Source of the DNA: Hypericibacter terrae
GTDB taxonomy: Bacteria; Pseudomonadota; Alphaproteobacteria; Dongiales; Dongiaceae
Assembly (NCBI RefSeq): GCF_008728855.1
Contig: NZ_CP042906.1
Location: 3,623,570 to 3,647,569, forward strand
Direction: 5' to 3'
DNA length: 24,000 bases
Every line of letters starts with the position of its first letter. Positions within the stretch are counted from its first letter, which is position 1. Below the pieces are notes generated by a model that did not search any database, was not told the origin of the DNA, and was given only the letters and a program-made list of their open reading frames with translations. This document shows, one piece after another, positions 964 through 14,967 of the stretch. Position numbers and translations under genes: made by a program.

Positions 964-997
964 TGATGCCGCGCATCTCGTTGACGACGAGCGTCGA
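964..997 (-). repeat. internal guaA-like fragment (non-coding relic)
   Basis: TGATGCCGCGCATCTCGTTGACGACGAGCGTCGAG matches guaA nt 13477-13510 at 30 of 34 positions in the same orientation. It lies in the convergent GST/HD spacer. Confidence 0.55.
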
Positions 998-1031
998 GGG
1001 ACAGGACATGCCCTTGTCTTGATGTCGAGCC

Positions 1032-1685
1032 TCAGGCTGCGGAATCCGGGAAGGGAGAGGCCGCGATCAAGTCGCAGGCGTTGGGGCTCTTGAACCCCGG
1101 GATGAAACGCTCGCAGACACCGGCGTTGACGGTGCCGTAGGTGGTCGCGGGCTTGTGCGAAAATCCGGCGAAATACTCCTGAATGAAGCGTTTCTTGAAG
1201 TTGGTACGCGGGTATCGGGCGACGATCTCCTCGCGCAGCGCCGCGGGAAATTGATCGAACCCCACCCCCAGCACATCGAGAAGAACACCCGAATTGAGGA
1301 GCGCCACCTCGGGGCGCATATAGCGCGGGATGCCGGGGGTGGTATGCAGCGCGATCGCTTCCCAGACGGTCTGCACCTGGTCCTCGGCAATGTTGTGGGC
1401 GGTGAGGAACTGCCGGGCGGCATTCGCGCCGTCAACCTCGAAGCGTTCGGCCTGGCTCGAGAAATCCTTGATAAGTCCAAGATCGTGAAATGCGGCGGCC
1501 ACATAGAGGAGCTCGGGGTCGAAGCGCAGTTTCCTCTCGCGACCCTGCTCGGCCGCGAACAGATAGACGCGGATCGAGTGATTGAAGAGCAGATCGGTAG
1601 AATGCCTGCGCAGGATCTCCGTGGCCTCTTTTGCGAGCAAGCTATCGGGAATGACGGGAGCAGAGACGAGATTGGCCGCGGCCAT
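1032..1685 (-). CDS. HD domain-containing protein (metal-dependent phosphohydrolase superfamily)
   Basis: 217-aa ORF with the H...HD motif (HSIRVY ... AAAFHDLGL). AAGGAA lies 7 nt upstream of ATG 1685. Confidence 0.8.
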   Translation of the reverse strand: MAAANLVSAPVIPDSLLAKEATEILRRHSTDLLFNHSIRVYLFAAEQGRERKLRFDPELLYVAAAFHDLGLIKDFSSQAERFEVDGANAARQFLTAHNIAEDQVQTVWEAIALHTTPGIPRYMRPEVALLNSGVLLDVLGVGFDQFPAALREEIVARYPRTNFKKRFIQEYFAGFSHKPATTYGTVNAGVCERFIPGFKSPNACDLIAASPFPDSAA

Positions 1686-1759
1686 TGTCGATTCCTTCGA
1701 AGGTCAGCTATAGAGCTCGGCGATGCGTCCGGCAACGCGAGCCTAACTGGGGTGATCGA

Positions 1760-2695
1760 TCAACTTTCTCGAACGGCAAGCACGATCTTTCCTTTCGGCA
1801 GAGGCCGCACGCGTTCCAGCATGAAATGAGCCGCGCGTGCATCCGCGAGGGGCAGGACTGCCCCCACCTTTGTTCTTAGTTTTCCATCGTCGATGAGGCG
1901 GGCGATCTCCGCGAGATACGGACTCGTTACGTTGACCAAAAAGAAGGCGGATTCGACGCCATGGCTTTCGGCAAGATGCTGATCCGGACGGGACACTGCC
2001 GAAATCAGCTTGCCGCCTCGACGAAGGACCCGAAACGACCGGTTCTGTGTTTCGCCGCCGACCAGATCGATGACAGCGTCCGCGTCCCGAACTTCTTCCT
2101 CGAAGCGCCGGGTCCGGTAGTCGATCACCGTGTCTGCGCCAAGACCGCGCACGAGGGGAATATCGTCCACGGCGACGGTCGCGATCGTTCGCACACCCGC
2201 GCGACGGGCCAGCTGAACCGCATAGGCTCCGACGTTTCCCGCCGCTCCGTGAATAACCGCTGTTTGACCCGCTTTGAGCTGAGCGTGATCAAACAGCGCC
2301 TGCCAGGCCGTCACGGAAATGACGGGAACGGAGGCCGCTTCAACAAAGGTCAGCGAGGTTGGCTTGAGCGAGACCATCGCTGCGGAAGCCAGCGCATACT
2401 CGGCGTAGGCCCCGATGAACTGCGGATTCGTGACACCATAGACCTGATCGCCCACCTGCAGCCCGGAAACCCCTGGCCCCATGGCGACGATTTCACCAGA
2501 CAGATCCGAGCCCAACGTGAGAGGGAGCGGTTGCGGCAGAGCGCTTCTTCCGGCCCTGATCCAGCCATCCCATGGACCGACCCCGGCGGCTTCGACTTTG
2601 ACCAGGATCTCGCCAGGGCCAGGCTCGGGCCGAGGGACTCGCTCGAAACTCATGACCTCCGGCGGTCCAAACTCATGCACGCGCCAAGCCATCAT
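1760..2695 (-). CDS. NADPH:quinone reductase-like zinc-type alcohol dehydrogenase (MDR superfamily)
   Basis: MMAWRVHEFGPPEVMSFERVPRPEPGPGEILVKVEAAGVGPWD and the Rossmann motif AVIHGAAGNVGAYAVQLA. Family homology starts at ATG 2695. An alternative upstream ATG at 2749 has a GGAGGA RBS. The 2950 start of the track ORF is unlikely. Confidence 0.85.
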   Translation of the reverse strand: MMAWRVHEFGPPEVMSFERVPRPEPGPGEILVKVEAAGVGPWDGWIRAGRSALPQPLPLTLGSDLSGEIVAMGPGVSGLQVGDQVYGVTNPQFIGAYAEYALASAAMVSLKPTSLTFVEAASVPVISVTAWQALFDHAQLKAGQTAVIHGAAGNVGAYAVQLARRAGVRTIATVAVDDIPLVRGLGADTVIDYRTRRFEEEVRDADAVIDLVGGETQNRSFRVLRRGGKLISAVSRPDQHLAESHGVESAFFLVNVTSPYLAEIARLIDDGKLRTKVGAVLPLADARAAHFMLERVRPLPKGKIVLAVRES

Positions 2696-3079
2696 TGTTG
2701 AATGAGTTCGCCCCTCACTGACCTCGGGAACGATGCTGCTGGCGGCCATCTGATCCTCCACAACATTCAGCTTGGCGCGCTCCGTGGCGGCGGCACCGCG
2801 CTCGCCGGCGACCTCGTCACGACTGTTCGGGGCATCTCCCGCGAGCCGGAATTTCTCGATCGCGTTCACTTCGGTGAACGGCGGCAGCGGAGGGCGCATG
2901 GATCGTTTCTCCAGAGCGGTTCGTCGGATGGGCTTGTCCGTATTTCGCAATTGACCCCTGCGGCGGACAAGGAACGCGATCCTGCAGATCAGGACAGCCC
3001 TACGTCGTTTCCCGACAATGGCCTGTCGGAGCCCTCGTCGCAGCAGAGGACGGCGGTTTCGTCGCCGGACGGTCCCGAT

Positions 3080-4054
3080 CTAGGCCGGTTCCGCCCGCCG
3101 GAAGCTGGCGCGATACTGGGCCGGTGTCACGCGGAGACGCGTGCTGAATACGATTCTCATCCGGTCCGCCGACCCGAAGCCGCAATCGAAGGCGACGGCC
3201 TTCAGCGGCCGGTCGCTTCCTTCCAGCATCATGCGCGCGGCGTCGACGCGCGCGCGCTCGATGAATTCGTGTGGCGTGATCCCGGTCTCCCGCACGAAAT
3301 GCCGTGCCAAATTCCGGGTGCTCATGCCGACGGCGGCGGCGAGCGAGTCCAAGGTATGACGGCCCGCGATGTCGGCCATGACGTGGTCCTGGATGCGTGC
3401 GATCGGCGCCCCCGGATCGGAAGGTGCCGTGAGATAGGGGCTGAACTGCGACTGTCCGCCTTGGCGCTGGGCAACAACAACCAGCCGCTTGGCGACCTTG
3501 AGCGCCGTTTCCGCGCCGTGCCGCTGCCGGACCAGCGCCAAGCCCAGATCTATCCCCGCCGTCACACCGGCCGAGGTGATCAGCTGTCCATCACGAACAT
3601 AGATCAAATCCGGTTCGACTTTTGCCTTCGGGAACCGGGCCGCCAGCGCCTGTGCATCCTGCCAATGGGTCGTGACCCGCCGGTCGTCCAGGAGGCCGGC
3701 ATAGCCAAGTACAAAAGCCCCGGTGCAGATCGATCCATAGACGCTCGAGCGCCGCGGCAACTCTTTGGCCCACTGAACGAAGTACGGTGCGGGCTCCGCT
3801 TCCGGTGGCGTCGGCGCGCCGGCGACCAGAACGATGTCGAAGCTGCCCGCCGCCTCCTCGAAGGTCAGGTCGGCCACCAGCCCTATGCCGTTCGAGGCGC
3901 GCAGCGGATTGCGGTGAGCCGCGACCAACACCGTTTCGTAGCGGTCCGCGCTGTCGAGAAAGCTATTCGCCTCGCTGAACACGTCCAGCGGCCCGGCCAC
4001 ATCCAGGGCCTGGACCCCCTCATGGACGACGATCGCGACAGTTTGTACCGGCAC
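3080..4054 (-). CDS. GlxA-family transcriptional regulator (DJ-1/PfpI domain fused to AraC-type HTH)
   Basis: The N-terminus VAIVVHEGVQALDVAGPLDVFSEAN and ICTGAFVLGYAGLLD indicate a DJ-1/PfpI-like domain. The C-terminus LDSLAAAVGMSTRNLARHFVRETGITPHEFIERARVDAARMML is an AraC HTH. GTG start at 4054. Confidence 0.9.
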   Translation of the reverse strand: MPVQTVAIVVHEGVQALDVAGPLDVFSEANSFLDSADRYETVLVAAHRNPLRASNGIGLVADLTFEEAAGSFDIVLVAGAPTPPEAEPAPYFVQWAKELPRRSSVYGSICTGAFVLGYAGLLDDRRVTTHWQDAQALAARFPKAKVEPDLIYVRDGQLITSAGVTAGIDLGLALVRQRHGAETALKVAKRLVVVAQRQGGQSQFSPYLTAPSDPGAPIARIQDHVMADIAGRHTLDSLAAAVGMSTRNLARHFVRETGITPHEFIERARVDAARMMLEGSDRPLKAVAFDCGFGSADRMRIVFSTRLRVTPAQYRASFRRAEPA

Positions 4055-4224
4055 CTCTTACCGCCTCTCGAGCTTGGCGCCCATGTTATGCGGGCGGCCC
4101 GCACGCCATAAAAGGCCTCGACTGCGCAAGGAGCCAAGCTCCCCGGACCGGCGCCCGTCTTGATCGATCTTGCGCCATTGAGAAAACCGCCACCGAAACC
4201 ACGCTAGGACCGCCGATTGCCCCG

Positions 4225-4303
4225 TCACTCCCACTCGATCGTTGCCGGCGGCCTCGAGGTCACGTCACAGCCCACCCGGTCGATGCCGAGCGCGTTGTTC
4301 CTA
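4225..4303 (-). repeat. guaA 3'-terminal remnant B (att-like copy of the GMP synthase gene end)
   Basis: The minus strand translates as LRNNALGIDRVGCDVTSRPPATIEWE-stop, compared with the authentic guaA end [24 protein letters not shown]-stop. It is intergenic and has the same orientation as guaA. Confidence 0.75.
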
Positions 4304-4355
4304 AGGACCTTCCGGTGCCGAATTCAGCCTGCGCGGCCGCAAGGACAGGTCTTCC

Positions 4356-4700
4356 TCAGGATGTCGGCCTATCGGCGAGCGCCCGCGCGATGATCGCGTC
4401 GAGATGGGCGCACGCGCAAACGAGCGCCCGGAAGCCGCAGGTGGTTTCGTCGAAGGCCAACGACAGCTCGGTTCCGGCCAGGATCACCGCGTCGGCGCCT
4501 TGATCCCGCACGAGGCGCTGGGCGGGAGCGCCCGCCTGCACGCGGCCCAGCACATAGCTGAGATCGGCATGCGAGATCGAGAGACGCAAGGGGACGCCGC
4601 GCTCGGCGAACGCTTGCGTCAACCGTTCGTAATAGTGAATCGTCGCGCCGGGACCGAGGCCTCCAATCAGACCGATGGTCCGGCCGCTCTCGCCTTTCAT
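4356..4700 (-). CDS. aspartate/glutamate racemase family protein, internally shortened (possible pseudogene)
   Basis: The N-terminus TIGLIGGLGPGATIHYYERL is the family signature. The C-terminal DAVILAGTELSL corresponds to the second catalytic motif but lacks the Cys. At 114 aa it is about half the usual family length. Confidence 0.55.
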   Translation of the reverse strand: MKGESGRTIGLIGGLGPGATIHYYERLTQAFAERGVPLRLSISHADLSYVLGRVQAGAPAQRLVRDQGADAVILAGTELSLAFDETTCGFRALVCACAHLDAIIARALADRPTS

Positions 4701-4730
4701 CGTGACGCCCTTCTCCGAACACCCTTCCCC

Positions 4731-4772
4731 TCACTCCCCCTCGATCGTCCATGGCGGGGCGACCTTCGAGGG
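4731..4772 (-). repeat. guaA 3'-terminal remnant C
   Basis: TCACTCCCCCTCGATCGTCC...CTTCGAGG translates on the minus strand as PSKVAPPWTIEGE-stop. It is collinear with the guaA end apart from an in-frame 6-nt insertion. It lies between the racemase start and the SWIM gene stop. Confidence 0.6.
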
Positions 4773-4784
4773 AGGCCCGCCCGA

Positions 4785-6488
4785 TCAGGGCGTCAGCAAT
4801 TTCATGAGATTGCGTTTGCGGCGGTGGCGGTCCTTGATATCCGCGACGTAAGTGGCCTGTTCGGTTGCGTCGCGCAGCTTGGCCATGCGCGCCACCAGCT
4901 TCACGGCCTCCTCATAGTGCCCGCCATTGACGAGCTCCTCCACCCGCGCGGCATAGACGCCGAGCGCCTCGCGCGGATGACTTTTCTGGCTCGCATCGGC
5001 GAGGTGTTCCTGCGCTCTCATCGAGGCGCCGTGCTTCCGAACCGCGGCCCATGCGCGGTCGAACGCCTTCTCCTGGATGAAAATCGCGATCAGCACCTCT
5101 TGCGGCCCATTCAAGCTCCAGCGATCCCCCGCGCCGCGTTTTCCAGAGGCGGATCGCGCCTCGAGAAAGCCGATCGCCCGCTCGCGCGCACCCGGCCCGG
5201 CCAGCTTGGCAAGCCGCTGATACAGATCGAGGCTCGGGCGCTTCTCGAACAGCCGCCACAGATGCGCGGCCGCCTCCACCTTGCGGCCCTTTCGGGACAG
5301 AAGGTCGGCGACGAGCAGCGTCAGGCCATTGTCGGGCCCTTCATCCTCGAAGATCCACAGACCCTCCTCCGCCCGGCGCAGCGCCTCGTCCTCCCGGCCC
5401 TGGTCGAGGCAGAACTGCGCAAGCTGCCCGTAGCGCCATGGCGAGGAAAGGTCCCTGGCGCGCAGCGCGATACGGGCGTCGATATCGCCCTCGCGCTCGG
5501 CGAAGAAATCCAGGATCGCCATCAGTCGGTCCGGTTCCCATTCGTCGTCGTCCGTCGTGGGTTTCTTCCTGCCCGTCCGCGCCGGCAGCTTGCGCCATGC
5601 GGCCTCGGCCAGGCGCCGATATTCGGCAAGCCCCTGCTCCCCGAGCACGCCTTCATAGAGTCCGGCGGCGCCATAGAACATGTCAAAGGCATCGTGGGTT
5701 TCGCGGCCGAACAGATAGCGCGCAAGCGCCACGGGTTCGGGCGGCGCCGCGGCGCAGGCGGCCAGATGGATGTCTCGCGTCCGCGACAGCAGCGCTCCGC
5801 CATGCCCGTCGGAATCGTCGATCGACTCCATCGCTTTCTCGATTCTTTCCATGGCGTGGTCGGCGAGCGCGCGCACGCGCTCCGCCTGCGGGCCTGAGGC
5901 CATGTCCGCAAGGATATCAAGCGCCTCGTCCACGCCCTCGGCCCAGCGCGACACATCGGCATATTCGATGAAGCCCCGTATGCGCGTGGCGGCGTCGATC
6001 GCCTTGCGCAGCCGCGCCTCGAGCGCCTTGTCGTCCGCATGAACGAGGGAAGCCGCAAGATCGAGCTTGCGGAACAGTGCCGGATCCCGCTCGGCCATAT
6101 CCACGATCAGATCGACCAGCGCGTCGACGCTCCTGGTCTTCAAATGCGCCCGGATACGCCCCAGCGAATCCGGACCGTCCGCCTGCCCGCTTGCGGCGGC
6201 CTCGTTTGCCGCCAGGGCGGTCGCGACCATATGCTTGCAGAAGCCGGAGTCCTCGAAGGCCCGGCAGCTGCAGGAGCCGTCGATGGCACGGCCTCGCCCG
6301 GAAAGCGTCACGCGATAGTCTTCGGTGCCGGCCACCTGCGCCAGCACCCGATCGGCCGCGAGCGACAGGATGGTGACCTTGCCGCCGCGGTGATAGGCCT
6401 CGCCGCGGGCGAAAGTCCGGTCGCCCGTCAGCGCCGCCAGCTCGCCGGGGTCGAATCTCGGCGCGCCCTTCTTCGTCTTATTCGTCAT
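4785..6488 (-). CDS. SWIM zinc-finger protein with a long helical-repeat C-terminal region
   Basis: SWIM signature CSCRAFEDSGFCKH (CxCx8CxH). I prefer ATG 6488 because it overlaps the upstream stop as ATGA. The 44 extra residues of the longest ORF (start 6620) are low-complexity and overlap the upstream gene. Confidence 0.85.
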   Translation of the reverse strand: MTNKTKKGAPRFDPGELAALTGDRTFARGEAYHRGGKVTILSLAADRVLAQVAGTEDYRVTLSGRGRAIDGSCSCRAFEDSGFCKHMVATALAANEAAASGQADGPDSLGRIRAHLKTRSVDALVDLIVDMAERDPALFRKLDLAASLVHADDKALEARLRKAIDAATRIRGFIEYADVSRWAEGVDEALDILADMASGPQAERVRALADHAMERIEKAMESIDDSDGHGGALLSRTRDIHLAACAAAPPEPVALARYLFGRETHDAFDMFYGAAGLYEGVLGEQGLAEYRRLAEAAWRKLPARTGRKKPTTDDDEWEPDRLMAILDFFAEREGDIDARIALRARDLSSPWRYGQLAQFCLDQGREDEALRRAEEGLWIFEDEGPDNGLTLLVADLLSRKGRKVEAAAHLWRLFEKRPSLDLYQRLAKLAGPGARERAIGFLEARSASGKRGAGDRWSLNGPQEVLIAIFIQEKAFDRAWAAVRKHGASMRAQEHLADASQKSHPREALGVYAARVEELVNGGHYEEAVKLVARMAKLRDATEQATYVADIKDRHRRKRNLMKLLTP

Positions 6489-6895
6489 GAGATTGGCCAG
6501 AGCAGCTCGTCGGTCCGGACCCGCTCCAGCGCCTCCTCGAGCGTCAGGGCCGCGTGGAGGAGAAACCACCGCCCGGTATGGCGGCGCCACATCACGTCGA
6601 AACGGGTTTCCGTCAGGCAATCCTCACGATGATCGAGGCGCGTGAAGGCCTCGTCGAACTCCTCGCCGAGATTGTCGGCGAAGCCGGACCGGAAACGTTC
6701 GATGAAACTGTATTGGCCGCCCCGCCATTTGCCGAAGATGTCGACGGGATAGTTGAACTCTGTTACCCGGATCTGCGGCAGAAAACGCGGCTTGAACTCT
6801 TCTCGAACGAAGCGCTCGCATCGTTCGGCGATGGCGGCCTTTTCCTCGTCGCGGAGCGCCCTCGCCCACACCCGTTCCGTGCCTTGCCGCGCCAT
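6485..6895 (-). CDS. hypothetical protein, DUF3024-like
   Basis: 136-aa ORF. Its C-terminal part RFDVMWRRHTGRWFLLH...TLEEALERVRTDELLWP resembles the recalled DUF3024 pattern (W.V.W.R....W..Y ... L.E.L..V..DE....W). It is translationally coupled to both neighbours. Confidence 0.7.
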   Translation of the reverse strand: MARQGTERVWARALRDEEKAAIAERCERFVREEFKPRFLPQIRVTEFNYPVDIFGKWRGGQYSFIERFRSGFADNLGEEFDEAFTRLDHREDCLTETRFDVMWRRHTGRWFLLHAALTLEEALERVRTDELLWPIS

Positions 6896-6903
6896 CCCCG
6901 TTC

Positions 6904-7119
6904 CTAGCTCTCTTTCATCCGCTCCAGCAAATGACGAATGATCGCCAGCTTGTCATCGGACAATCCGGCGAGCCGCCCCTCGTCCAGATAGCCCTCGCCG
7001 ATGAGCCGGGCAAAGACAAAGAGCAGCTGCGAATAGCGATAGTCGAACAGCTCATCGAGGGTCCGGCGCTGCCGCCGCAGATCGTCCTCGATCGCCCATA
7101 TGTCCGACAGCGTCGCCAC
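6904..7119 (-). CDS. fluorescence-recovery-protein-like (FRP-like) small helical protein; minimum extent given, since the coding frame stays open upstream to 7245
   Basis: SDIWAIEDDLRRQRRTLDELFDYRYSQLLFVFARLIGEGYLDEGRLAGLSDDKLAII aligns without gaps to recalled Synechocystis FRP (DDLWKLHDFLSAKRHEIDGKYDDRQSVIIFVFAQLLKEGLVQAEELTFLAADKQSKI). The first canonical start is GTG 7119. The FRP-like N-terminal helix (KWSGSEKKIARRAYDAALEAA...) is encoded at 7120-7224. Confidence 0.7.
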   Translation of the reverse strand: MATLSDIWAIEDDLRRQRRTLDELFDYRYSQLLFVFARLIGEGYLDEGRLAGLSDDKLAIIRHLLERMKES

Positions 7120-7302
7120 CGCGGCCGCCTTTGCCTTGAATTCGGCGACGATACCGGCTTTCGCAGCCTCGAGCGCGGCGTCATAGGCGCGCCGCGCAAT
7201 CTTCTTCTCGGAGCCGGACCATTTGAGGTTGTGCGGGCCCAGGACTCACCTCACTGAGCGGCCTATGGCAGGTCGAAGACCGTGAAACATCCCATCCGCC
7301 CC

Positions 7303-7320
7303 TCACTCCCACTCATCCAT
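7303..7320 (-). repeat. guaA 3'-terminal remnant D (short)
   Basis: TCACTCCCACTC is identical to the first 12 nt of remnant B. The minus-strand reading is DEWE-stop. It sits exactly where the sequence switches to visibly lower GC. Confidence 0.45.
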
Positions 7321-7852
7321 TTTAAGTCATGCTAACACGTTGAATTTACGGCATAACGCTTTTTTGATCGCGCCTCACGATCCGAACTGCGAACCGACAA
7401 AATTTTTCGACGCTGATTTTCAACAAGAAATCTCGCGATTCCGATTCCACGACATTCAGCGACTATCGACATCAATTGGTCGAATTTTCCGCTGATCGCC
7501 GCGGCTGATCGATAGCCAGCAACCACAAAAAAGGCCGTCACGAGACTACCGAACACCCGAGCGCGTGACCAGACCTGCGCTCGTCAGCAATGTCATTCCG
7601 GCCCGCAGCGACGAGTGTTCACACTTCGATTTCCTTGTTCCTCGCCGCAACCAAGCTACGGTCTCGCCTGGCGCAAGTCCGACCGTCGCGAGCCGGCAGC
7701 AGCCGAACCGTTAGATCTGAGCGTATCCGTATACTCCCTGCTTGCGACGTGCGCGATCCGGTCTTTTCATGTAGCGTAAGCTTCTCCGCCCATCGCTATC
7801 TGCGTTGGCGCGATGTCTAGCCGTGCGATTGCCGTCGAGGCTGGAGAAGAAC

Positions 7853-8692
7853 ATGATCATTGACTCCTCCGATGAAGTATCCCGATTCGTCTGGCTCAAG
7901 CGCTTTCCCTTTCCGCGCAACTTCAATGTCACGCCGGAATCGCGCATCGAGCCAGGACACACATGGCCAGCGCCCGCCGGCGCGACACGGACGAAAGCGT
8001 TCGACATCTATCGCTACGATCCCGATTCCGGCGGCAATCCTCGCCTCGACAGGTTTTATGTTGACCTCGACGATTGCGGGCCGATGGTTCTCGATGCGCT
8101 GATCTGGATCAAGAACAAGGTGGATTCGACGCTCGCCTTCCGCCGCTCATGCCGCGAAGGTGTGTGCGGCTCCTGCTCCATGACCATGGACGGCACCAAC
8201 TGGCTGGCCTGCACGCGTTTCAGCTCGGACATGGCGACCCCGGCGACGATTTACCCGCTCGCCAATATGAGAGTCGTCAAAGACCTCGTTCCCGACCAGA
8301 CCCACGTCTTCGCGCAATACGCGGCGATCCAGCCTTGGCTCCGCTCTAAAACGCCCGAGCCCGAGAAGGAGCGACTTCAGTCTGTCGAGGAGCGCGGCCG
8401 GATCGACGGCTATTACGAATGTATCCTCTGCTTCTGCTGCACCTCGGGATGTCCGAGCCACTGGTGGAACGGCGATCGTTTTCTTGGACCAGCGGTACTT
8501 CTTCAGGCGTGGCGCTGGCTGACCGACAGCCGCGACGAGGCAAAGGAAGAGCGGCTCGATAATCTCGAAGACCCATTCCGGCTGTATCGGTGCCACACCA
8601 TCCTCAACTGCACCCGGACCTGTCCGAAGGGATTGAACCCCGGCAAGGCCATCGCCGAGATCAAAAAGATGATCGTCGAGCGCGAGAGCTGA
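7853..8692 (+). CDS. sdhB: succinate dehydrogenase/fumarate reductase iron-sulfur subunit
   Basis: All three cluster motifs are present: [38 protein letters not shown] and [21 protein letters not shown] lies 6 nt upstream of ATG 7853. The N-terminus is about 20 aa longer than recalled rhizobial SdhB. Confidence 0.93.
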
Positions 8693-8694
8693 CC

Positions 8695-9114
8695 ATGGAC
8701 ATCAAGACGATCGCGCCTGCAACGCCGCAGCGTCGCCCGCTGTCACCCAACATTCAGCATTACCGGCCACAACTGACATCAGTTCTGTCGATCGCGAATC
8801 GCATCACCGGGGTCATCCTGAGCGTCGGCGCCGTTGGCCTAGTGATCTGGTTGAGTGCCGCTGCCGCCGGGGCTGAGCCCTACGCCGCCGTCCAGCAAGC
8901 GATCGGCTCGTGGATCGGCCGCTTCGTGTTGTTCGGCTGCACCTTCGCCTTCTTCCTGCACCTATGCGGCGGCATACGTCATCTCGTGTGGGACACCGTG
9001 CACGGCTTCGAGCTGCGTTCGATTTATATCTCGGGATGGTCGGTGGTGGCGGCGAGCATCGCGCTCACCGTGGCGGCCTGGGCGGCTGGTCTTTGCGTCG
9101 GCGGGGGGCTCTGA
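8695..9114 (+). CDS. sdhC: succinate dehydrogenase cytochrome b556 subunit
   Basis: RPLSPNIQHYRPQLTSVLSIANRITG and the heme-ligand region HLCGGIRHLVWD. ATG 8695 lies 2 nt after the sdhB stop. Confidence 0.9.
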   Translation: MDIKTIAPATPQRRPLSPNIQHYRPQLTSVLSIANRITGVILSVGAVGLVIWLSAAAAGAEPYAAVQQAIGSWIGRFVLFGCTFAFFLHLCGGIRHLVWDTVHGFELRSIYISGWSVVAASIALTVAAWAAGLCVGGGL

Positions 9115-9500
9115 TGAATCGCTCCTCCTTCCGCTCTCCGCTAGGACGCGCCATCGGGCTGGGCTCGGCGAAAAGCGGCTCGCAACACTGGCTGGTACAA
9201 CGGGTAACCGCGGTCGCGTTGGTGCCGCTGACACTGTGGTTCGTGGCGTCCATCATCGCCCATGCCGGTAGCGATTACACGACCTTCATCGCCTGGCTGA
9301 GGACACCGTTCGCTGCAGGGGGCATGATCCTGTTGCTGATCGCTCTCTTTCATCACGCCGCGCTCGGCCTGCAGGTAGTGATCGAGGATTATGTTCACTC
9401 GGGCGCCAGATTTGCGGCGGTGATCGCGATCCAGCTTTGCTGCTACGGTCTCGCCGTGACTGGGATCGTCGCGACGCTGCGTATCGCGTTCGGCGGTTGA
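9114..9500 (+). CDS. sdhD: succinate dehydrogenase hydrophobic membrane anchor subunit
   Basis: SPLGRAIGLGSAKSGSQHWLVQRVTAVALVPL and HHAALGLQVVIEDYVH. The start overlaps the sdhC stop as TGATG. Confidence 0.9.
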   Translation: MNRSSFRSPLGRAIGLGSAKSGSQHWLVQRVTAVALVPLTLWFVASIIAHAGSDYTTFIAWLRTPFAAGGMILLLIALFHHAALGLQVVIEDYVHSGARFAAVIAIQLCCYGLAVTGIVATLRIAFGG

Positions 9501-10082
9501 GTAGAGGCGGCGGCGATCGCGTGATTCCGGCTGCGGAGTTGCGGCCGGATAGAGGATCGTGCCGTCGCAGCCCACGGCGGCGCCCGGTGTCAGGCTGGCC
9601 CCGTCGACATGCGATGGTCCCGTGATGTGCATCACACGCTCGCCTTGGCTGAGCAGATAATCGGTGATAATGCGCCGATGACAGCGCCACCAGACGGCCT
9701 CGGCGCACATGATTGCGTACCGGTGCTGGCCGCCCAGTTCCCGCAGTCGCGCAAGGCCTGCGGCAAAGGGCGTCGTCAGGGCATAGTCGGCATAGTTACG
9801 AAAGCCGCGCACCCGCCAATAGGCATTTGGAGAGGGTTCGCCGCCACGCGTCTTTCCGCGAAGGCCGCCAAATTCCGCGATGTGTTCATAGCCGATTTGC
9901 CAAAGCGCCAGCGTTTCGGGGAGGCTATCACCGTTGAATTGCGGATTGGTGCGCGACCGCGGCATCGATCTCACGTCAACCACGAAATTGACGCGGAATT
10001 CCCGGAGGAGATCGACGAATTCGGCGATCTCCCTGGTAGAATGGCCGATGGTGAAGAATGTGTTCGTGTCGGCTCCGGTGAT
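9141..10082 (-). pseudogene. DUF488 domain gene, apparently degenerate (no canonical start for the conserved N-terminus; reads through antisense to sdhD)
   Basis: Hallmarks FFTIGHSTREIAEFVDLL, VVDVRSMPRSRTNPQFN and IMCAEAVWWRCHRRIITDYL. The frame is open from 10121, but the first ATG/GTG/TTG is GTG 9983, inside the domain. Family-like sequence ends near 9530 (GTILYP), yet the frame runs on to 9141 across sdhD. Confidence 0.55.
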
Positions 10083-10219
10083 ATGGCGGCAGCGGTCAAC
10101 CGCGGCGGCATTGCCGCAGAATTATGGTCAAAACACATTGTTTCAACGCTGGCTTTGGGCGCATGCTAGACGCGAGAAAAACTCGTTTGTGTCGCTCGAG
10201 GATCCGAAAGCGCTCGGAA

Positions 10220-10441
10220 ATGATCCTGAAAGCCAAATTCAAGATCGGTGATCATGTGAGCTGGAATTCGGAGGCCGGGCGCGTCAGCGGCGTGATCGTT
10301 CGCGTCCATACGCGCAATTTCGATGTTAACGGCTATACGCATCATGCAAGCGCGGAAGCGCCGCAATACGAGATCAAGAGCAGCAAGACCGAGCACGTCG
10401 CCTTCCACAAAGGCGCGGCGCTCACCCGACTTCGCGACTGA
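10220..10441 (+). CDS. DUF2945 (Hva1-type TUDOR domain) protein
   Basis: KFKIGDHVSWNSEAGRVSGVIVRVHTRNFDVNGYTHHASAEAPQYEIKSSKTEHVAFHKGAALT matches the recalled DUF2945 consensus. I prefer the internal ATG 10220. Confidence 0.8.
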   Translation: MILKAKFKIGDHVSWNSEAGRVSGVIVRVHTRNFDVNGYTHHASAEAPQYEIKSSKTEHVAFHKGAALTRLRD

Positions 10442-10461
10442 CACTCCGCCAGGCGCGATCG

Positions 10462-12216
10462 ATGACAGAAAGCGATCGCCCGATGCCCACGACTTCCCAG
10501 CCTCCCTCGCCCGAACCGCTTCGTGCCAGTCTTAGCGATGCGGACGATCGCATCCGTCTCAATCACTGGATGCCGCCGCAACAGGGAATTTTTCCGCGCA
10601 TCCGGATTGGGAGCCGCTGGATCAATACCTTGTGGGTGCTGCCGGTCGGAGCAGCGGCGCTGCTCTGCCTGATCGCGCTGGCGCAAAGCCTGCGCGAACT
10701 GCCAAGCGTCGCGGCCTTTATTCAAAACCATCCCGGCATCGCGCAATCGGCGCCGCCGGTCGACACGGGCTTTCCGTGGTGGCTACAGCTCCAGCACTTC
10801 CTGAACATGTTCTTCATGCTGTTCATCATGCGGGCCGGCCTGCAAATTCTGGCCGACCATCCACGGCTCTATTGGGGCCGCGACTGCACTCCGGGGAGCG
10901 ATTGGTTCCGGTTCCAGGTGCCGGTACCGAAGGGCCGCATCTGGACTGCCAAGGATGATTCCGTCACACTGCCGACGTGGCTCGGGATTCCCGGATTGCG
11001 CCATACGCTCGGGCTGTCGCGCTGGTGGCACTTCTCGATCAACCTGTTGTGGCTGATCAACGGCATTGCGTTTTATGCGCTGCTGTTTTCGACCGACCAG
11101 TGGCACCGGCTGGTGCCGCTGACCTGGGAGGTTTTTCCCGCAACGCTCTCAACAGCGATCCAATACGCCTCGCTGAACTTCCCGGTCGATGAAGGCTGGA
11201 CCCGCTACAACGGCCTCCAGCAGTTCAGCTACTTCGTCACCGTCTTCGTCGCGGCACCCGTCTCGATCGTCACCGGGTTGATGCAGAGCCCGGCGATCTC
11301 CAATGCGCTTGGCTGGTTTGGCCGGCTGTTCAACCGGCAGGCGATGCGGTCGGTTCACTTCATTTCGTTCGCGTGGTTCGTCGGCTTCATCCTGGCGCAT
11401 GGCGCCATGGTGTTCGTCACCGGCATCCGGCAGAACACCAATCACATGTTCGGCGGCGTCGATGACGCCTCCTGGACAGGGTTCCCACTCTTCCTCCTTG
11501 CGATGGCCATCATGTTTGTCGCCTGGCTCGCCGTCTCGCCTCTCACCATCCGCTACGCGCATCTCGTGCAGCGCTCGGGAGCGTTCATGATCGGCTGGCT
11601 CATGGGGCTGGCCGAAGGTTGGGACCCGCACTCGCAGCTAACCAAGAAGGACATCTCGCCGTATTTCTGGCCGAACGGCACGATGCCTAACTCGAAAGAA
11701 TTCGAGGATTTCTTGGCGGAGAACTTCGCCAGATACCGGCTCCGGATCAGCGGCCTCGTCGAGGCACCACAGGAGTTCTCCCTCGCAGATATCAAGGCGA
11801 TGGCGAAGCAGGAGCAGATCACGACGCATTTCTGCATTCAGGGCTGGTCCGGCGTCGCCGAATGGGGTGGGGTTCCCATGAGCGATATTCTCGCCTTGGT
11901 GAAGCCGACTCCCGAAGCCCGCTATGCCGTGTTCTACTCTCTGGCCGACGGGGCCGATGGCGGCCGTTATTACGACGTCCATAAAATCGAGAACATGAGG
12001 CACGAACTGACAATCCTCGCCTACGAGATGAACGGGGCGCCTGTCAGCGTTCTGCATGGCGCGCCGTTGCGGCTGCGTTGCGAGAACGAACTCGGCTTCA
12101 AGATGGTCAAATGGGTCGTAGCGATCGAGTTCGTGGCGGACTTTGCCGATCTCGGCGCCGGCCAGGGCGGCTACAATGAGGACCACGAATTTTACGGCTA
12201 CCGGATGCCGATTTGA
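10462..12216 (+). CDS. fusion protein: multi-pass cytochrome-b-like membrane domain plus sulfite-oxidase/MsrP-type molybdopterin oxidoreductase domain
   Basis: The N-terminal ~380 aa contain about six hydrophobic helices with conserved His residues (LQHFLNMFF, ADHP, WWHFSINLLW, VHFISFAWFVGFILAHG). The C-terminus carries the Moco-domain motif ITTHFCIQGWSGVAEWGGVPMSDIL and GAPLRLRCENELGFKMVKWV. Confidence 0.85.
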   Translation: MTESDRPMPTTSQPPSPEPLRASLSDADDRIRLNHWMPPQQGIFPRIRIGSRWINTLWVLPVGAAALLCLIALAQSLRELPSVAAFIQNHPGIAQSAPPVDTGFPWWLQLQHFLNMFFMLFIMRAGLQILADHPRLYWGRDCTPGSDWFRFQVPVPKGRIWTAKDDSVTLPTWLGIPGLRHTLGLSRWWHFSINLLWLINGIAFYALLFSTDQWHRLVPLTWEVFPATLSTAIQYASLNFPVDEGWTRYNGLQQFSYFVTVFVAAPVSIVTGLMQSPAISNALGWFGRLFNRQAMRSVHFISFAWFVGFILAHGAMVFVTGIRQNTNHMFGGVDDASWTGFPLFLLAMAIMFVAWLAVSPLTIRYAHLVQRSGAFMIGWLMGLAEGWDPHSQLTKKDISPYFWPNGTMPNSKEFEDFLAENFARYRLRISGLVEAPQEFSLADIKAMAKQEQITTHFCIQGWSGVAEWGGVPMSDILALVKPTPEARYAVFYSLADGADGGRYYDVHKIENMRHELTILAYEMNGAPVSVLHGAPLRLRCENELGFKMVKWVVAIEFVADFADLGAGQGGYNEDHEFYGYRMPI

Positions 12217-12285
12217 TCGTTCGTGGGAGCGCCGGTCGTGGCAAAGAGGCTTGACCGGCGACAAGAGGATGCGGGAGCTGAAACG

Positions 12286-12795
12286 ATGATCGTCGAGGAT
12301 ATATTGCCTTGCGCGATCGAACGTCTGGCCTTGATCGAAGCAGGAGCACCGGTCAGGGACGCGGCCGCGCTCATGTCTAAGCCGCATACCGACCTCATCG
12401 TTGTGTGCAATCATGGCGACATGGTCGGTGTTTTGACAAAGACCGACATCGTCGGCCAGATCGGTGGCTGCACGGGCGCCGGCTGCACGGCCAGGGTGGA
12501 TAGCATCATGACCCGCAATGTCACCTATTGCCGGACACACGAGACATTGCTCGACGTGTGTTCGGTGATGAGGGAACGAGGTCTGCAACGTGTTCCGATC
12601 CTTGACGAAGCACACCGGCCACTCGGCATCACCTATGCGCGGGAAGCCTTGCAGGCTCTGCTTTCGGAGTCAGAGAACCAGGATGAGTTGCTTCGCGATT
12701 ACATGTCCGGGGTCGGGTATCGGGAAGCTGAGCGAAGCGACCATCGCCAGTTCTGGCTATTCACCGATGGATATATGCGCCGACACGAATATTGA
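12286..12795 (+). CDS. CBS domain-containing protein
   Basis: Two CBS repeats (MIVEDIL...DLIVVCNHGDMVGVLTKTDIV and SIMTRNVTYC...RGLQRVPILDEAHRPLGITYAREAL). GGGAG lies upstream of ATG 12286. GTG 12223 is an alternative start. Confidence 0.8.
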   Translation: MIVEDILPCAIERLALIEAGAPVRDAAALMSKPHTDLIVVCNHGDMVGVLTKTDIVGQIGGCTGAGCTARVDSIMTRNVTYCRTHETLLDVCSVMRERGLQRVPILDEAHRPLGITYAREALQALLSESENQDELLRDYMSGVGYREAERSDHRQFWLFTDGYMRRHEY

Positions 12796-12806
12796 AAGGA
12801 GTTGCG

Positions 12807-13154
12807 ATGCCCCGTCAGAAGTCAGGTGACTTCAATCAGCGTCAACAGGCGTTATCGAGATGGGATAACGAAGGCGGAGCCGCCGGTCCCGTGATGGCTC
12901 CGACCGCTGACGAACAACAAATCCCAACTCCAAACATGAGCAATGCTGATCTGGTGGCGCTGCGTGTCCGGGTTATCGCGCTGGAGAATTTGCTGATTGC
13001 GTTGCTCGCCACGGCATCGAATCAGCAGCTCGAACTCGCGCGCGAAATGGCCGGATACATCTCGCCGAGGCCAGGCTTTACCCTTCATCCACTGACCATA
13101 CATGCCGCCGCCCATATGATTGATCTCATTGAGCGGCCGTCGCGCTTCCGATGA
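12807..13154 (+). CDS. hypothetical protein with N-terminal WDNEGGA motif
   Basis: AAGGAG lies 5 nt upstream of ATG 12807. The LSRWDNEGGA motif is typical of a family of small proteobacterial proteins of unknown function. The C-terminal half is helical. Confidence 0.7.
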   Translation: MPRQKSGDFNQRQQALSRWDNEGGAAGPVMAPTADEQQIPTPNMSNADLVALRVRVIALENLLIALLATASNQQLELAREMAGYISPRPGFTLHPLTIHAAAHMIDLIERPSRFR

Positions 13155-13209
13155 CGTGGAAGCCCTTTGATCGATGTGACGGACGCCGCTCCATGCACCA
13201 CGGGATATT

Positions 13210-13244
13210 CGGCTGCGGCTCCGTGAAGCCGCAACCGGTTTTTT
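13210..13244 (+). terminator. Rho-independent terminator closing the 10220-13154 operon
   Basis: CGGCTGCGGCT / AGCCGCAACCG form an 11-bp stem with one mismatch and a 6-nt loop, followed by G and TTTTTT. It lies 56 nt after the stop at 13154. Confidence 0.6.
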
Positions 13245-13419
13245 CAGGCCGCATGCGGCATGCGAGACGTGAAGGTAGCCCGGGAAATCGAGATCTTGGT
13301 GCAGCGGGATCTGCTTGCGACGTCTATTCGCGCATCGCGCTGCCAATCGAAGACAATCGGAAAGCAATGCGACGCCAAGGTATTCTATGATCTCCTAGAC
13401 TATCCTAAATTACTTTCCT

Positions 13420-14967
13420 TCACTCCCATTCGATCGTCCCCGGCGGCTTCGAGGTAACGTCATAGACCACGCGGTTGATGCCGCGCACCTCGTTGACGAT
13501 GCGGGTCGAGACGCGGCCGAGGAAGTCCATCGGGAAGGGGAAGAAGTCGGCGGTCATGCCGTCGGTCGAGGTGACGGCGCGCAAGGCGCAGACGCGGTCA
13601 TAAGTGCGGGCGTCCCCCATCACGCCCACAGTGCGCACCGGCAGCAGCACGGCGAAGGCCTGCCAGATTGCGTCATAGAGGCCGGCATTCTCGATCTCCT
13701 GCAGATAGATCGCGTCGGCCTTGCGCAGGATGTCGAGCTTCTCCTTGTCGATGTCGCCCATCACGCGGATGGCGAGACCCGGTCCCGGGAAGGGATGGCG
13801 GCGCACCATGCGCTCCGGCAATCCCAGCTCGCGGCCCAGCGCGCGCACCTCGTCCTTGAAGAGCTCGCGCAGCGGCTCGACCAGCTTCATGCGCATGCGT
13901 TCCGGCAGGCCGCCCACATTGTGGTGGGACTTGATCGTCACGCTGGGGCCGCCGGTGAAGGAGACGGATTCGATCACGTCGGGATAGAGCGTGCCCTGCG
14001 CCAGGAAATCGGCGCCGCCGATCTTCTTCGCCTCCTCCTCGAACACGTCGATGAAGAGTCGGCCGATGGTCTTGCGCTTGAGCTCGGGCTCCTCGAGCAG
14101 CGCCAGCTCACCCAGGAACAGATGCGAGGCGTCGCGATGCACCAGCGGGATGTTGTAATGGCCGCGGAAGAGCTCGACCACCTGCTCCGCCTCGCCTTCG
14201 CGCAGCAGGCCGTGATCGACGAAGATGCAGGTGAGCTGCTCGCCGATCGCCTCATGGATCAGCACGGCCGCCACCGAGGAATCCACGCCGCCCGAAAGCC
14301 CGCAGATGACGCGGCCCTTGCCGACCTGCTTGCGGATCGCCTCGACCGCCTGCTGGCGGAAGGCGGCCATGGTCCAGTCGCCTTTGGCGCCCGAGACGCG
14401 GCGCACGAAATTCGAGATCAGCTTGGCGCCGTCGGGGGTATGCACCACCTCGGGATGGAACTGCACGCCATACATCTTGCGGCTGTCGTCGGCGATGGCG
14501 GCGAAGGGCGCGCCGTCGCTGACCGCCACCGGGCGGAAGCCCGGCGGCAGCTTCACCACCTTGTCGCCGTGGCTCATCCAGACCTGGTGCCGCTCGCCCG
14601 GATTCCAGAGGCCCTCGAACAGGTCGCAAGGCTCCTTGATCTCGATCACCGCGCGGCCGAACTCGCGGGCCTCGCCGCGCTCGACCTTGCCGCCGAGCTG
14701 CTCGCAGATCGCCTGCTCGCCATAGCAGATGCCCAGCACCGGCGTGCCGAGCTCGAAGGCCTCGTGCGGCGCCTTGGGCGCGTCGCCCTCATAGATCGAG
14801 GCCGGGCCGCCCGACAGGATCACGCCCTTGGGCTTGAAGTTCTTGATGCGCTCCGGGGCGGCGTTGAAGGGGAGGATCTCGCAATAGACCCCCGCCTCGC
14901 GCACGCGCCGCGCTATGAGCTGGGTGACTTGGGAACCGAAATCGAGGATCAGGATGCGATCGGTCAT
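13420..14967 (-). CDS. guaA: glutamine-hydrolysing GMP synthase
   Basis: 515 aa. GATase motif GICYGEQ, PP-loop SGGVDSSV and the universal C-terminus KPPGTIEWE. Confidence 0.97.

Follow-up and report, generated by a model that had tools for sequence, protein, structure and literature searches.

Three genes packed on the minus strand of the Hypericibacter terrae genome (NZ_CP042906.1), within the 24,000-nucleotide (nt) stretch analyzed here (hereafter the window, in whose positions the operon coordinates are given), form an operon (4785–7242) which joins an FRP-like gene (FRPL, a relative of the cyanobacterial fluorescence recovery protein FRP), a DUF3024 gene and a SWIM-finger gene. We read this operon as real, co-oriented and translationally coupled, and as one composition of a modular accessory cluster, i.e., a mobile, non-enzymatic scaffold module in which FRPL is optional, and give this reading a probability of about 0.55. 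Across genomes, the association is a minority, optional partnership that recurs in soil alphaproteobacteria. An earlier note on this DNA had presented the operon as a candidate undescribed module: no description of the three-gene association was found in the literature on DUF6880, DUF3024, PDC-S62 and FRP-like proteins; the SWIM component is already catalogued (as DUF6880 and as PADLOC PDC-S62).

Organization of the operon

The three co-oriented open reading frames (ORFs) are all annotated as hypothetical proteins, and are arranged as follows:

6904..7242, minus strand: FRP-like (FRPL) gene, FRZ44_33220, 112 codons plus TAG from a putative CTG start at 7242
7247..7252, minus strand: GAGGTG Shine-Dalgarno-like hexamer, 4 nt upstream of CTG 7242, read from the sequence
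6485..6895, minus strand: DUF3024 gene, FRZ44_33210, 136 amino acids (aa), Pfam PF11225
4785..6488, minus strand: SWIM/DUF6880-type helical-repeat gene, FRZ44_33200, 567 aa from ATG 6488
6231..6272, minus strand: CxCx8CxH zinc-finger motif (C73, C75, C84, H86), read from the sequence

An 8-nt spacer separates the FRPL stop codon (6904–6906) from the DUF3024 start codon (ATG 6895), and the DUF3024 stop codon (TGA, 6485–6487) overlaps the start of the SWIM gene (ATG 6488) in an ATGA at 6485–6488, which confirms the single packed unit described earlier. The three family calls made at the same time were also right by Pfam: FRPL scores 74.5 bits against FRP (PF18032, cut-off 26.6, profile positions 1–97 of 99), the DUF3024 protein 65.8 bits against PF11225 (cut-off 24.9, profile positions 4–111 of 112), and the SWIM protein 32.3 bits against SWIM (PF04434, cut-off 19.6, residues 58–95). 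NCBIfam and PHROGs scans of the three proteins returned no matches, and no catalytic domain was found in any of them. A scan of 4550–7650 for promoters and terminators detected nothing promoter-like, and sites resembling terminators were no more frequent than expected by chance. Genes for orange carotenoid protein (OCP), carotenoid synthesis or photosynthesis, which the earlier note had reported missing from the window, are indeed not found among its larger ORFs.

Recurrence and co-inheritance of the association

Gene neighborhoods were surveyed around FRPL (survey A, 79 loci from species-representative genomes, 6 kb per side) and around the SWIM gene (survey B, 80 metagenome loci). In survey A, a DUF3024 and/or SWIM homologue sits directly beside FRPL in 9 of the 79 loci; in survey B, the DUF3024 gene lies immediately upstream of the SWIM gene, and overlaps it, in 30 of 62 evaluable loci. 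At ~20 distinct loci, including some added by targeted look-ups outside the two surveys (L166–168, L171, L173 and two contigs carrying P0095), FRPL shares its strand with DUF3024 and/or SWIM and lies 0–90 nt away. At least four gene orders occur, FRPL>DUF3024>SWIM (L001, L173, L171, L129/130 and the P0095 contigs), DUF3024>SWIM>FRPL (L019, L021, L105, L118), SWIM>FRPL (L004, L033, L098, L099, L101, L109, L162, and L166–168 as DUF6880>FRPL) and DUF3024>FRPL (L045). The earlier note would have taken a lack of recurrent co-localisation in other genomes as a sign of chance adjacency, and such recurrence was found.

The order FRPL>DUF3024>SWIM is kept down to 63–68% FRPL identity. Linkage is also seen away from guaA, the GMP synthase gene at whose 3′ end these modules are commonly located (see below): it follows a membrane-protein gene in L171 and an LCM methyltransferase gene in L166–168, and is found in L004, L033 and L162 with no guaA within 4 kb. 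As calculated from the reported coordinates, the SWIM stop codon overlaps or abuts the FRPL start codon in L098, L101, L105 and L118, and these junctions therefore leave no space for an att scar. Evolutionarily, DUF3024 and SWIM divergences are correlated (Mantel r 0.73, p < 0.0005, 35 loci), as are, less tightly, those of FRPL and SWIM (Mantel r 0.59, p < 0.0005, 13 loci), and GuaA and SWIM divergences are uncorrelated (rho 0.02). The ratio of non-synonymous to synonymous changes (dN/dS) between the window and L171 is 0.48 for FRPL, 0.22 for DUF3024 and 0.27 for SWIM, which indicates purifying selection on all three genes.

Several observations weigh against this reading. Both surveys took the best 80 matches, which over-samples relatives of the window locus. 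Neither partner occurs within 6 kb of FRPL in 70 of the 79 survey A loci, and at these 70 loci profile hidden Markov models find no hidden DUF3024 or full-length DUF6880 beside the solo FRPLs (the sole extra profile match is a SWIM domain ~4 kb off in L022). From the other side, FRPL adjoins the SWIM gene in only 9 of the 80 survey B loci, and the SWIM gene is often solitary or has other partners. The three-component module proposed in the earlier note thus recurs but is not obligate, and with 9/79 FRPL loci and 9/80 SWIM loci linked, the three-part composition is a minority state. Locus L028 reads FRPL, guaA remnant, DUF3024, and because the remnant separates the two genes, FRPL and DUF3024 can be independent neighboring cassettes. 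The rank correlation between FRPL and SWIM divergences over the same 13 loci is only 0.26 (p 0.053). No residue is present in ≥75% of linked FRPLs yet in ≤25% of solo FRPLs, so there is no sign of a specialized FRPL interface. Finally, the FRPL start codon is CTG in the window and in L001, and the L001 copy (4559–4893) carries a 1-nt deletion frameshift.

Other contexts were met around the same genes, in part through six-frame neighbor clustering, which is noisy at these high-GC loci and serviceable only for strongly recurrent families. A ~195-aa gene overlaps the SWIM/DUF6880 stop codon in 22 of 68 loci (L097, L102, L106, L107, L110, L113, L115 and 15 more); its product combines a GS...DLD nucleotidyltransferase-like motif with a CxxC...C cluster and matches no Pfam or PADLOC family significantly (Polbeta E 0.098). 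It is an alternative downstream partner that was never seen together with FRPL, and the window lacks it. An ArsC-like gene follows in eight loci. In the model rhizobium Sinorhizobium meliloti (L172, 2401–8895), guaA is followed by vapC, a 109-aa DUF3024 fragment, the 195-aa gene (5335–5922) and, further on, an ArsC-family gene; this is a decayed version of the cluster which has lost its SWIM gene. Several linked copies also appear damaged, with FRPL frameshifted in L001 and L162 (5761–6089) and an internal deletion of DUF3024 in L129/130, which could reflect either metagenome assembly errors or real decay. The solo FRPL genes of a Mesorhizobium clade (L014, L017, L018, L024 and others) show conserved synteny. 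Reading of the ORF translations suggests a helix-turn-helix regulator of the MmyB type and an NmrA-like protein that binds NAD(P) as their neighbors, which is a different and possibly regulatory context.

The FRP-like gene

FRP is a textbook allosteric regulator. The window FRPL aligns without gaps to the Pseudomonas borbori FRPL (PDB 8AG8, E 1.1e-28), to 5TZ0 (E 2.9e-16) and, over 99 residues, to the Synechocystis FRP Slr1964 (PDB 4JDX, E 1e-11), so that the gap-free alignment over ~57 residues given in the earlier note extends further. Residues W50, D54, R60, F76 and L106 (Synechocystis numbering) are retained, the first three aligning with W49, D53 and R59 of the window FRPL, and Glu replaces H53 of the Synechocystis protein. 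The OCP-contact triad F76/K102/L106 keeps its F and L but has Ile in place of K102, and is therefore incomplete; this triad is a criterion for FRP-like activity on OCP, not for membership of the family (PMC10172135).

Assigning the start of this gene is less straightforward. The ORF opens at 7245, immediately behind a TGA stop, and ends with TAG 6904–6906; its frame upstream of GTG 7119 has no ATG, GTG or TTG, and the GenBank product is a 71-aa protein from GTG 7119 (6904–7119). Homologues of 112 aa begin one codon past the ORF opening, with ATG in P0001 and L171 and TTG in L173 (N-termini MGLHDLKWSG or LSLHDLKWSG). The codon at this position is CTG in the window and L001, preceded by GAGGTG, and the leader with this hexamer is conserved in L001 and L173. 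The gene had earlier been drawn from 7245, which is not a start codon, and the homologues imply CTG 7242 instead. We place FRPL at 6904–7242, because the homologue starts match CTG 7242, the ORF is intact and the gene is under purifying selection. Translation is thus predicted to begin at CTG 7242, and full-length expression of FRPL in H. terrae would depend on this codon.

The function of FRPLs was called unclear by Steube et al. (2023; PMC10172135), in agreement with the statement of the earlier note that proteobacterial FRP-like proteins have no assigned function. The same study reports that the P. borbori FRPL rises and relocalises upon starvation, and concludes that cyanobacterial FRP was recruited from proteobacterial FRP-like proteins by horizontal transfer; its text contains no neighborhood analysis.

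Fusions of the FRP domain are rare among 937 FRP-family representatives (from 1.84 billion clusters). In P0452 (L175:6001–6927), an N-terminal FRP domain is joined to an HsdS target-recognition domain, and a Bro-N gene comes next; in P0416 (L178:5001–6161), the FRP domain follows a plasmid pRiA4b ORF3-like domain on the C-terminal side. In L169/L170 (3169–7152), FRPL is directly upstream of an 823-aa DpdE/ZorD/DrmD-like SNF2 helicase gene, after hsdM and hsdS, and the FRPL–helicase pair is bracketed by guaA C-terminal fragments.

The SWIM/DUF6880 and DUF3024 proteins

The zinc finger of the SWIM protein reads C73-S-C75-x8-C84-K-H86, and its four Cys and His residues are invariant in 58 homologues. 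Over nearly its whole length (residues 7–565 on profile positions 7–558 of 566), the protein matches the PADLOC profile PDC-S62 (E 1.6e-51), and residues 24–108 match the N-terminus of the PADLOC DpdE profile (E 5e-8). The protein itself does not match DUF6880 (PF21810) at E ≤ 1, but homologues ~60% identical to it score 53–55 bits against this family (cut-off 27.3) in addition to SWIM. The AF2 model (pLDDT 88.1) suggests a small N-terminal beta-plus-finger domain followed by an all-helical solenoid, and its Foldseek fold matches are solely TPR, HAT and PPR scaffolds. We also considered a Mutator-like transposase; this was rejected, as the protein has no DDE or other catalytic domain and the remainder is a helical solenoid. 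The ORF is open upstream to TTG 6620 (611 aa; 4785–6620), which would overlap the DUF3024 gene by ~135 nt, and the RefSeq start gives 601 aa; homologue alignment and the ATGA coupling favor ATG 6488 (567 aa).

The AF2 model of the DUF3024 protein (pLDDT 89.8) combines one long helix with an antiparallel sheet of five strands and a helix at the C-terminus, and Foldseek searches with it against PDB and BFVD gave nothing at E ≤ 0.001. The idea that it mimics the NTF2-like C-terminal domain of OCP was dropped, because the best PDB fold matches of the model, although NTF2/ketosteroid-isomerase-like, are not significant (TM ~0.12). The DUF3024 and SWIM alignments, used as profiles against PDB sequences, likewise retrieved nothing, and tblastn found no phage homologue of the DUF3024 protein.

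A cassette between guaA-terminus repeats

Copies of the guaA terminus flank the operon and punctuate the DNA around it:

13420..14967, minus strand: guaA (GMP synthase; NCBIfam NF000848, 810 bits), whose 3′ end is both the sequence found repeated and the target of integration
7299..7363 (core 7299–7314), minus strand: guaA-terminus repeat D with its element-side arm, an attR-type junction of a 6.1-kb segment
4727..4760, minus strand: guaA-terminus repeat C, ~30 nt, beginning ~25 nt past the SWIM stop codon
4221..4288, minus strand: guaA-terminus repeat B, ~62 nt, sharing 89% identity with the true guaA end

The guaA-terminus 16-mer occurs four times where 0.29 occurrences are expected, always on the guaA strand, with copies at the true guaA end (13416) and in D, C and B; a fifth copy of the terminus lies at 964–987, and the tail lengths recurring downstream correspond to the last 12–60 nt of guaA. 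That the operon is bracketed by guaA-end remnants C and D and behaves like a cassette, as first suggested from the window alone, is borne out by its relatives, in which guaA-terminus repeats flank homologous modules too. Equivalents of repeat C follow the module in L001, L083, L087, L089, L112, L116, L122, L129/130, L132, L135 and L136. The flanking repeats are 64–67 nt long with 95% identity in L129/130 (9 nt past the SWIM stop codon), 49–52 nt in L087, L089, L112 and L116, and shorter elsewhere, and all are on the guaA strand. The module of the relatives commonly sits directly after guaA, although only 15 of the 53 SWIM loci that could be evaluated have a co-oriented guaA end no more than 400 nt upstream (gaps of 16–60 nt). 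Genomic islands, e.g., GIsul2 (PMC9376610), are documented to target the 3′ end of guaA.

In the window, the operon and guaA are now 6.1 kb apart. The arm of repeat D, 'AATTCAAnGCGTTAC..ACTT..AATCGAGTGGGAGTGA', recurs in L001, L136 and L173 (less closely in L011 and L153), and the leader downstream of repeat D is near-identical in L001 and L173; for these two reasons, we take D to be the far junction of a 6.1-kb insertion. As judged from this junction, the insertion would have pushed away an operon that formerly lay directly after guaA. The segment itself (7315–13416) holds sdhB-, sdhC- and sdhD-like genes without sdhA, a cytochrome b561/molybdopterin-oxidoreductase fusion, a CBS-pair protein, a DUF488 protein and two family-less ORFs. 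No integrase or recombinase was found between D and C, nor among the larger ORFs of the 987–13416 array.

Altogether, the five guaA-terminus copies cut the 12.4 kb between guaA and a GST gene (289–963) into four segments of unrelated cargo, and this array (964–13431) looks like tandem accretion at a single attachment site. Between repeats C and B, a 114-aa ORF (4356–4700) has weak matches only: residues 9–31 resemble the N-terminus of amino-acid racemase families (NCBIfam), and residues 60–87 match a mid-to-C-terminal stretch of Pfam Asp_Glu_race at 28.7 bits, which does not reach the cut-off of 31. This ORF probably represents a pseudogene within a decayed segment. Elsewhere, the core 'GAGTGGGAGTGA' is tandemly duplicated, 15–17 nt apart, at the guaA stop codon (L129 2470–2498, L148 3364–3390), which suggests repeated recombination at this site.

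Proposed mechanism and its significance

In gene content, the cluster has the SWIM-finger/DUF6880 helical-solenoid protein as its hub, with DUF3024, encoded just upstream with a stop/start overlap, as its commonest co-inherited small partner, and FRPL as a facultative third partner that has become linked to one or the other side of the hub on several occasions. As the most likely mechanism, the products would assemble into a non-enzymatic complex, for which the TPR-like solenoid could serve as scaffold and the N-terminal zinc-finger domain could bind nucleic acid or protein. FRPL, putatively an all-helical dimer, would bind its partner reversibly and so reset or tune the conformation of that partner, in the manner of FRP on OCP. 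The unit would be carried as a small integrase-less cassette in the integration hot spot at the guaA 3′ end, and its patchy distribution would follow from this carriage. The physical interaction, the protein that FRPL contacts and the physiological role are what we infer here, and the FRPL link holds in only about one locus in nine.

More tentatively, and at somewhat less than even odds, the native partner of the FRP-like family may be the SWIM/DUF6880 scaffold, with or without DUF3024, traveling as a miniature guaA-hot-spot cassette among conflict-system genes. If so, this would give FRPL its first functional context, and the cassette would be a concrete vehicle for the horizontal transfer proposed by Steube et al. 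(2023; PMC10172135). A recurrent coupled neighbor is the simplest route to the function of FRPL, and the operon offers this orphan family its first candidate partners, naming the SWIM/DUF6880 scaffold first and DUF3024 second as candidates for binding. With these data, PDC-S62, catalogued as a single-gene defense candidate, becomes the hub of a modular cluster of several genes whose partners are interchangeable. They also document very small integrase-less cargo units between guaA-terminus repeats, and such units may account for the scattered occurrence of FRPL and its horizontal spread.

Alternative explanations

A rather unlikely alternative is that the cluster is an anti-phage or anti-plasmid defense module, with SWIM/DUF6880 (PDC-S62) as its core and DUF3024, FRPL and the 195-aa nucleotidyltransferase-like protein as interchangeable accessory or effector subunits. 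The full-length PDC-S62 match fits this explanation, as does the origin of the PDC candidates, which were proposed from genes lying inside BREX, DISARM or type I restriction-modification loci. All 145 PDC systems, however, are listed only as candidates, and no nuclease, NADase, protease, pore or other effector domain was found in the window trio. Variable partners around a hub do recall the modularity of defense systems, and comparable settings exist among the relatives: distant plasmid DUF6880 homologues lie beside an integrase, near Wadjet JetD, or near Abi/MazE genes; FRPL sits between HsdM/HsdS and a DpdE/ZorD-like SNF2 helicase in the guaA-repeat array of L169/170, and is fused to the HsdS target-recognition domain next to Bro-N in P0452; and a DUF3024 gene lies between stk and cI in prophage 933W (PMC10789677). 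The neighbors in the window, however, are metabolic or regulatory, with no known defense genes adjoining, and the viral contig collection yielded a single match, 31% identical and limited to the SWIM N-terminal domain. FRPL relatives were found neither in that collection nor in the plasmid collection. Such defense and mobile-element neighbors are leads, not evidence of activity.

The association might instead be positional, with FRPL, DUF3024 and SWIM/DUF6880 as independent cargo in the same orientation at the guaA 3′ attachment site, made adjacent by tandem accretion and decay of the att scars. In favor of this, FRPL alone (L063, L070), SWIM alone (L084, L088, L091, L100) and DUF3024>SWIM (L080, L081, L096 and others) are all found right after guaA; L028 has its guaA remnant between FRPL and DUF3024, L003 has a gap of ~960 bp, and the five terminus copies of the window split 12.4 kb into segments of unrelated cargo. 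Coincidence nevertheless accounts poorly for linkage that persists off guaA (L171, L166–168, L004, L033, L162), for junctions of 0–90 nt with several stop/start overlaps and no att remnant, and for a FRPL>DUF3024>SWIM order held to 63–68% FRPL identity, and we consider it a shade less probable than a defense role. Very unlikely is a housekeeping adjunct co-transcribed with GMP synthase in guanine-nucleotide or starvation physiology: 15 of 53 evaluable SWIM loci do have a guaA end at most 400 nt upstream on the same strand (gaps 16–60 nt), the P. borbori FRPL responds to starvation (PMC10172135) and S. meliloti retains a decayed copy after guaA, but GuaA and SWIM divergences are uncorrelated, the guaA-terminus direct repeats flank the module like integration scars, the majority of loci are not at guaA, and 6.1 kb now separates the operon from guaA in the window. 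We thus retain the reading of an accessory scaffold module with an optional FRPL.

Comparison with known systems

Compared to characterized FRP and FRPL proteins (4JDX, 8AG8), the window FRPL is a clear member of the family, of equal length and aligned without gaps. Like other FRPLs it has no OCP gene nearby, and like most of them, which do not act on OCP, it differs from FRP by the change of K102 to Ile (PMC10172135). Unlike these characterized proteins, it is operonic with DUF3024 and SWIM/DUF6880 genes and appears to start at CTG. Set against the DUF3024 protein ST933Wp24 of the Stx prophage 933W, the window protein spans nearly the whole PF11225 profile, and its alphaproteobacterial clade is fixed upstream of a SWIM/DUF6880 gene.

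Genomic islands at the guaA 3′ end such as GIsul2 (PMC9376610) use the same target, and in both cases co-oriented terminus repeats bracket the inserted DNA, but a unit of the window type is only 2.1–2.5 kb and encodes no integrase or excisionase; it would need help in trans to move, or may be left over from a larger element. With the DpdE-type SNF2 helicases, the SWIM protein shares its N-terminal domain, but lacks their helicase/ATPase domain and continues as a TPR-like solenoid. Among PDC-S62/DUF6880 proteins, finally, it fits the PDC-S62 profile over its full length; whereas PDC-S62 is listed as a single-gene candidate, the gene is coupled to DUF3024 here and in about half of its relatives, and subsets of these relatives are coupled to FRPL or to the 195-aa nucleotidyltransferase-like gene.

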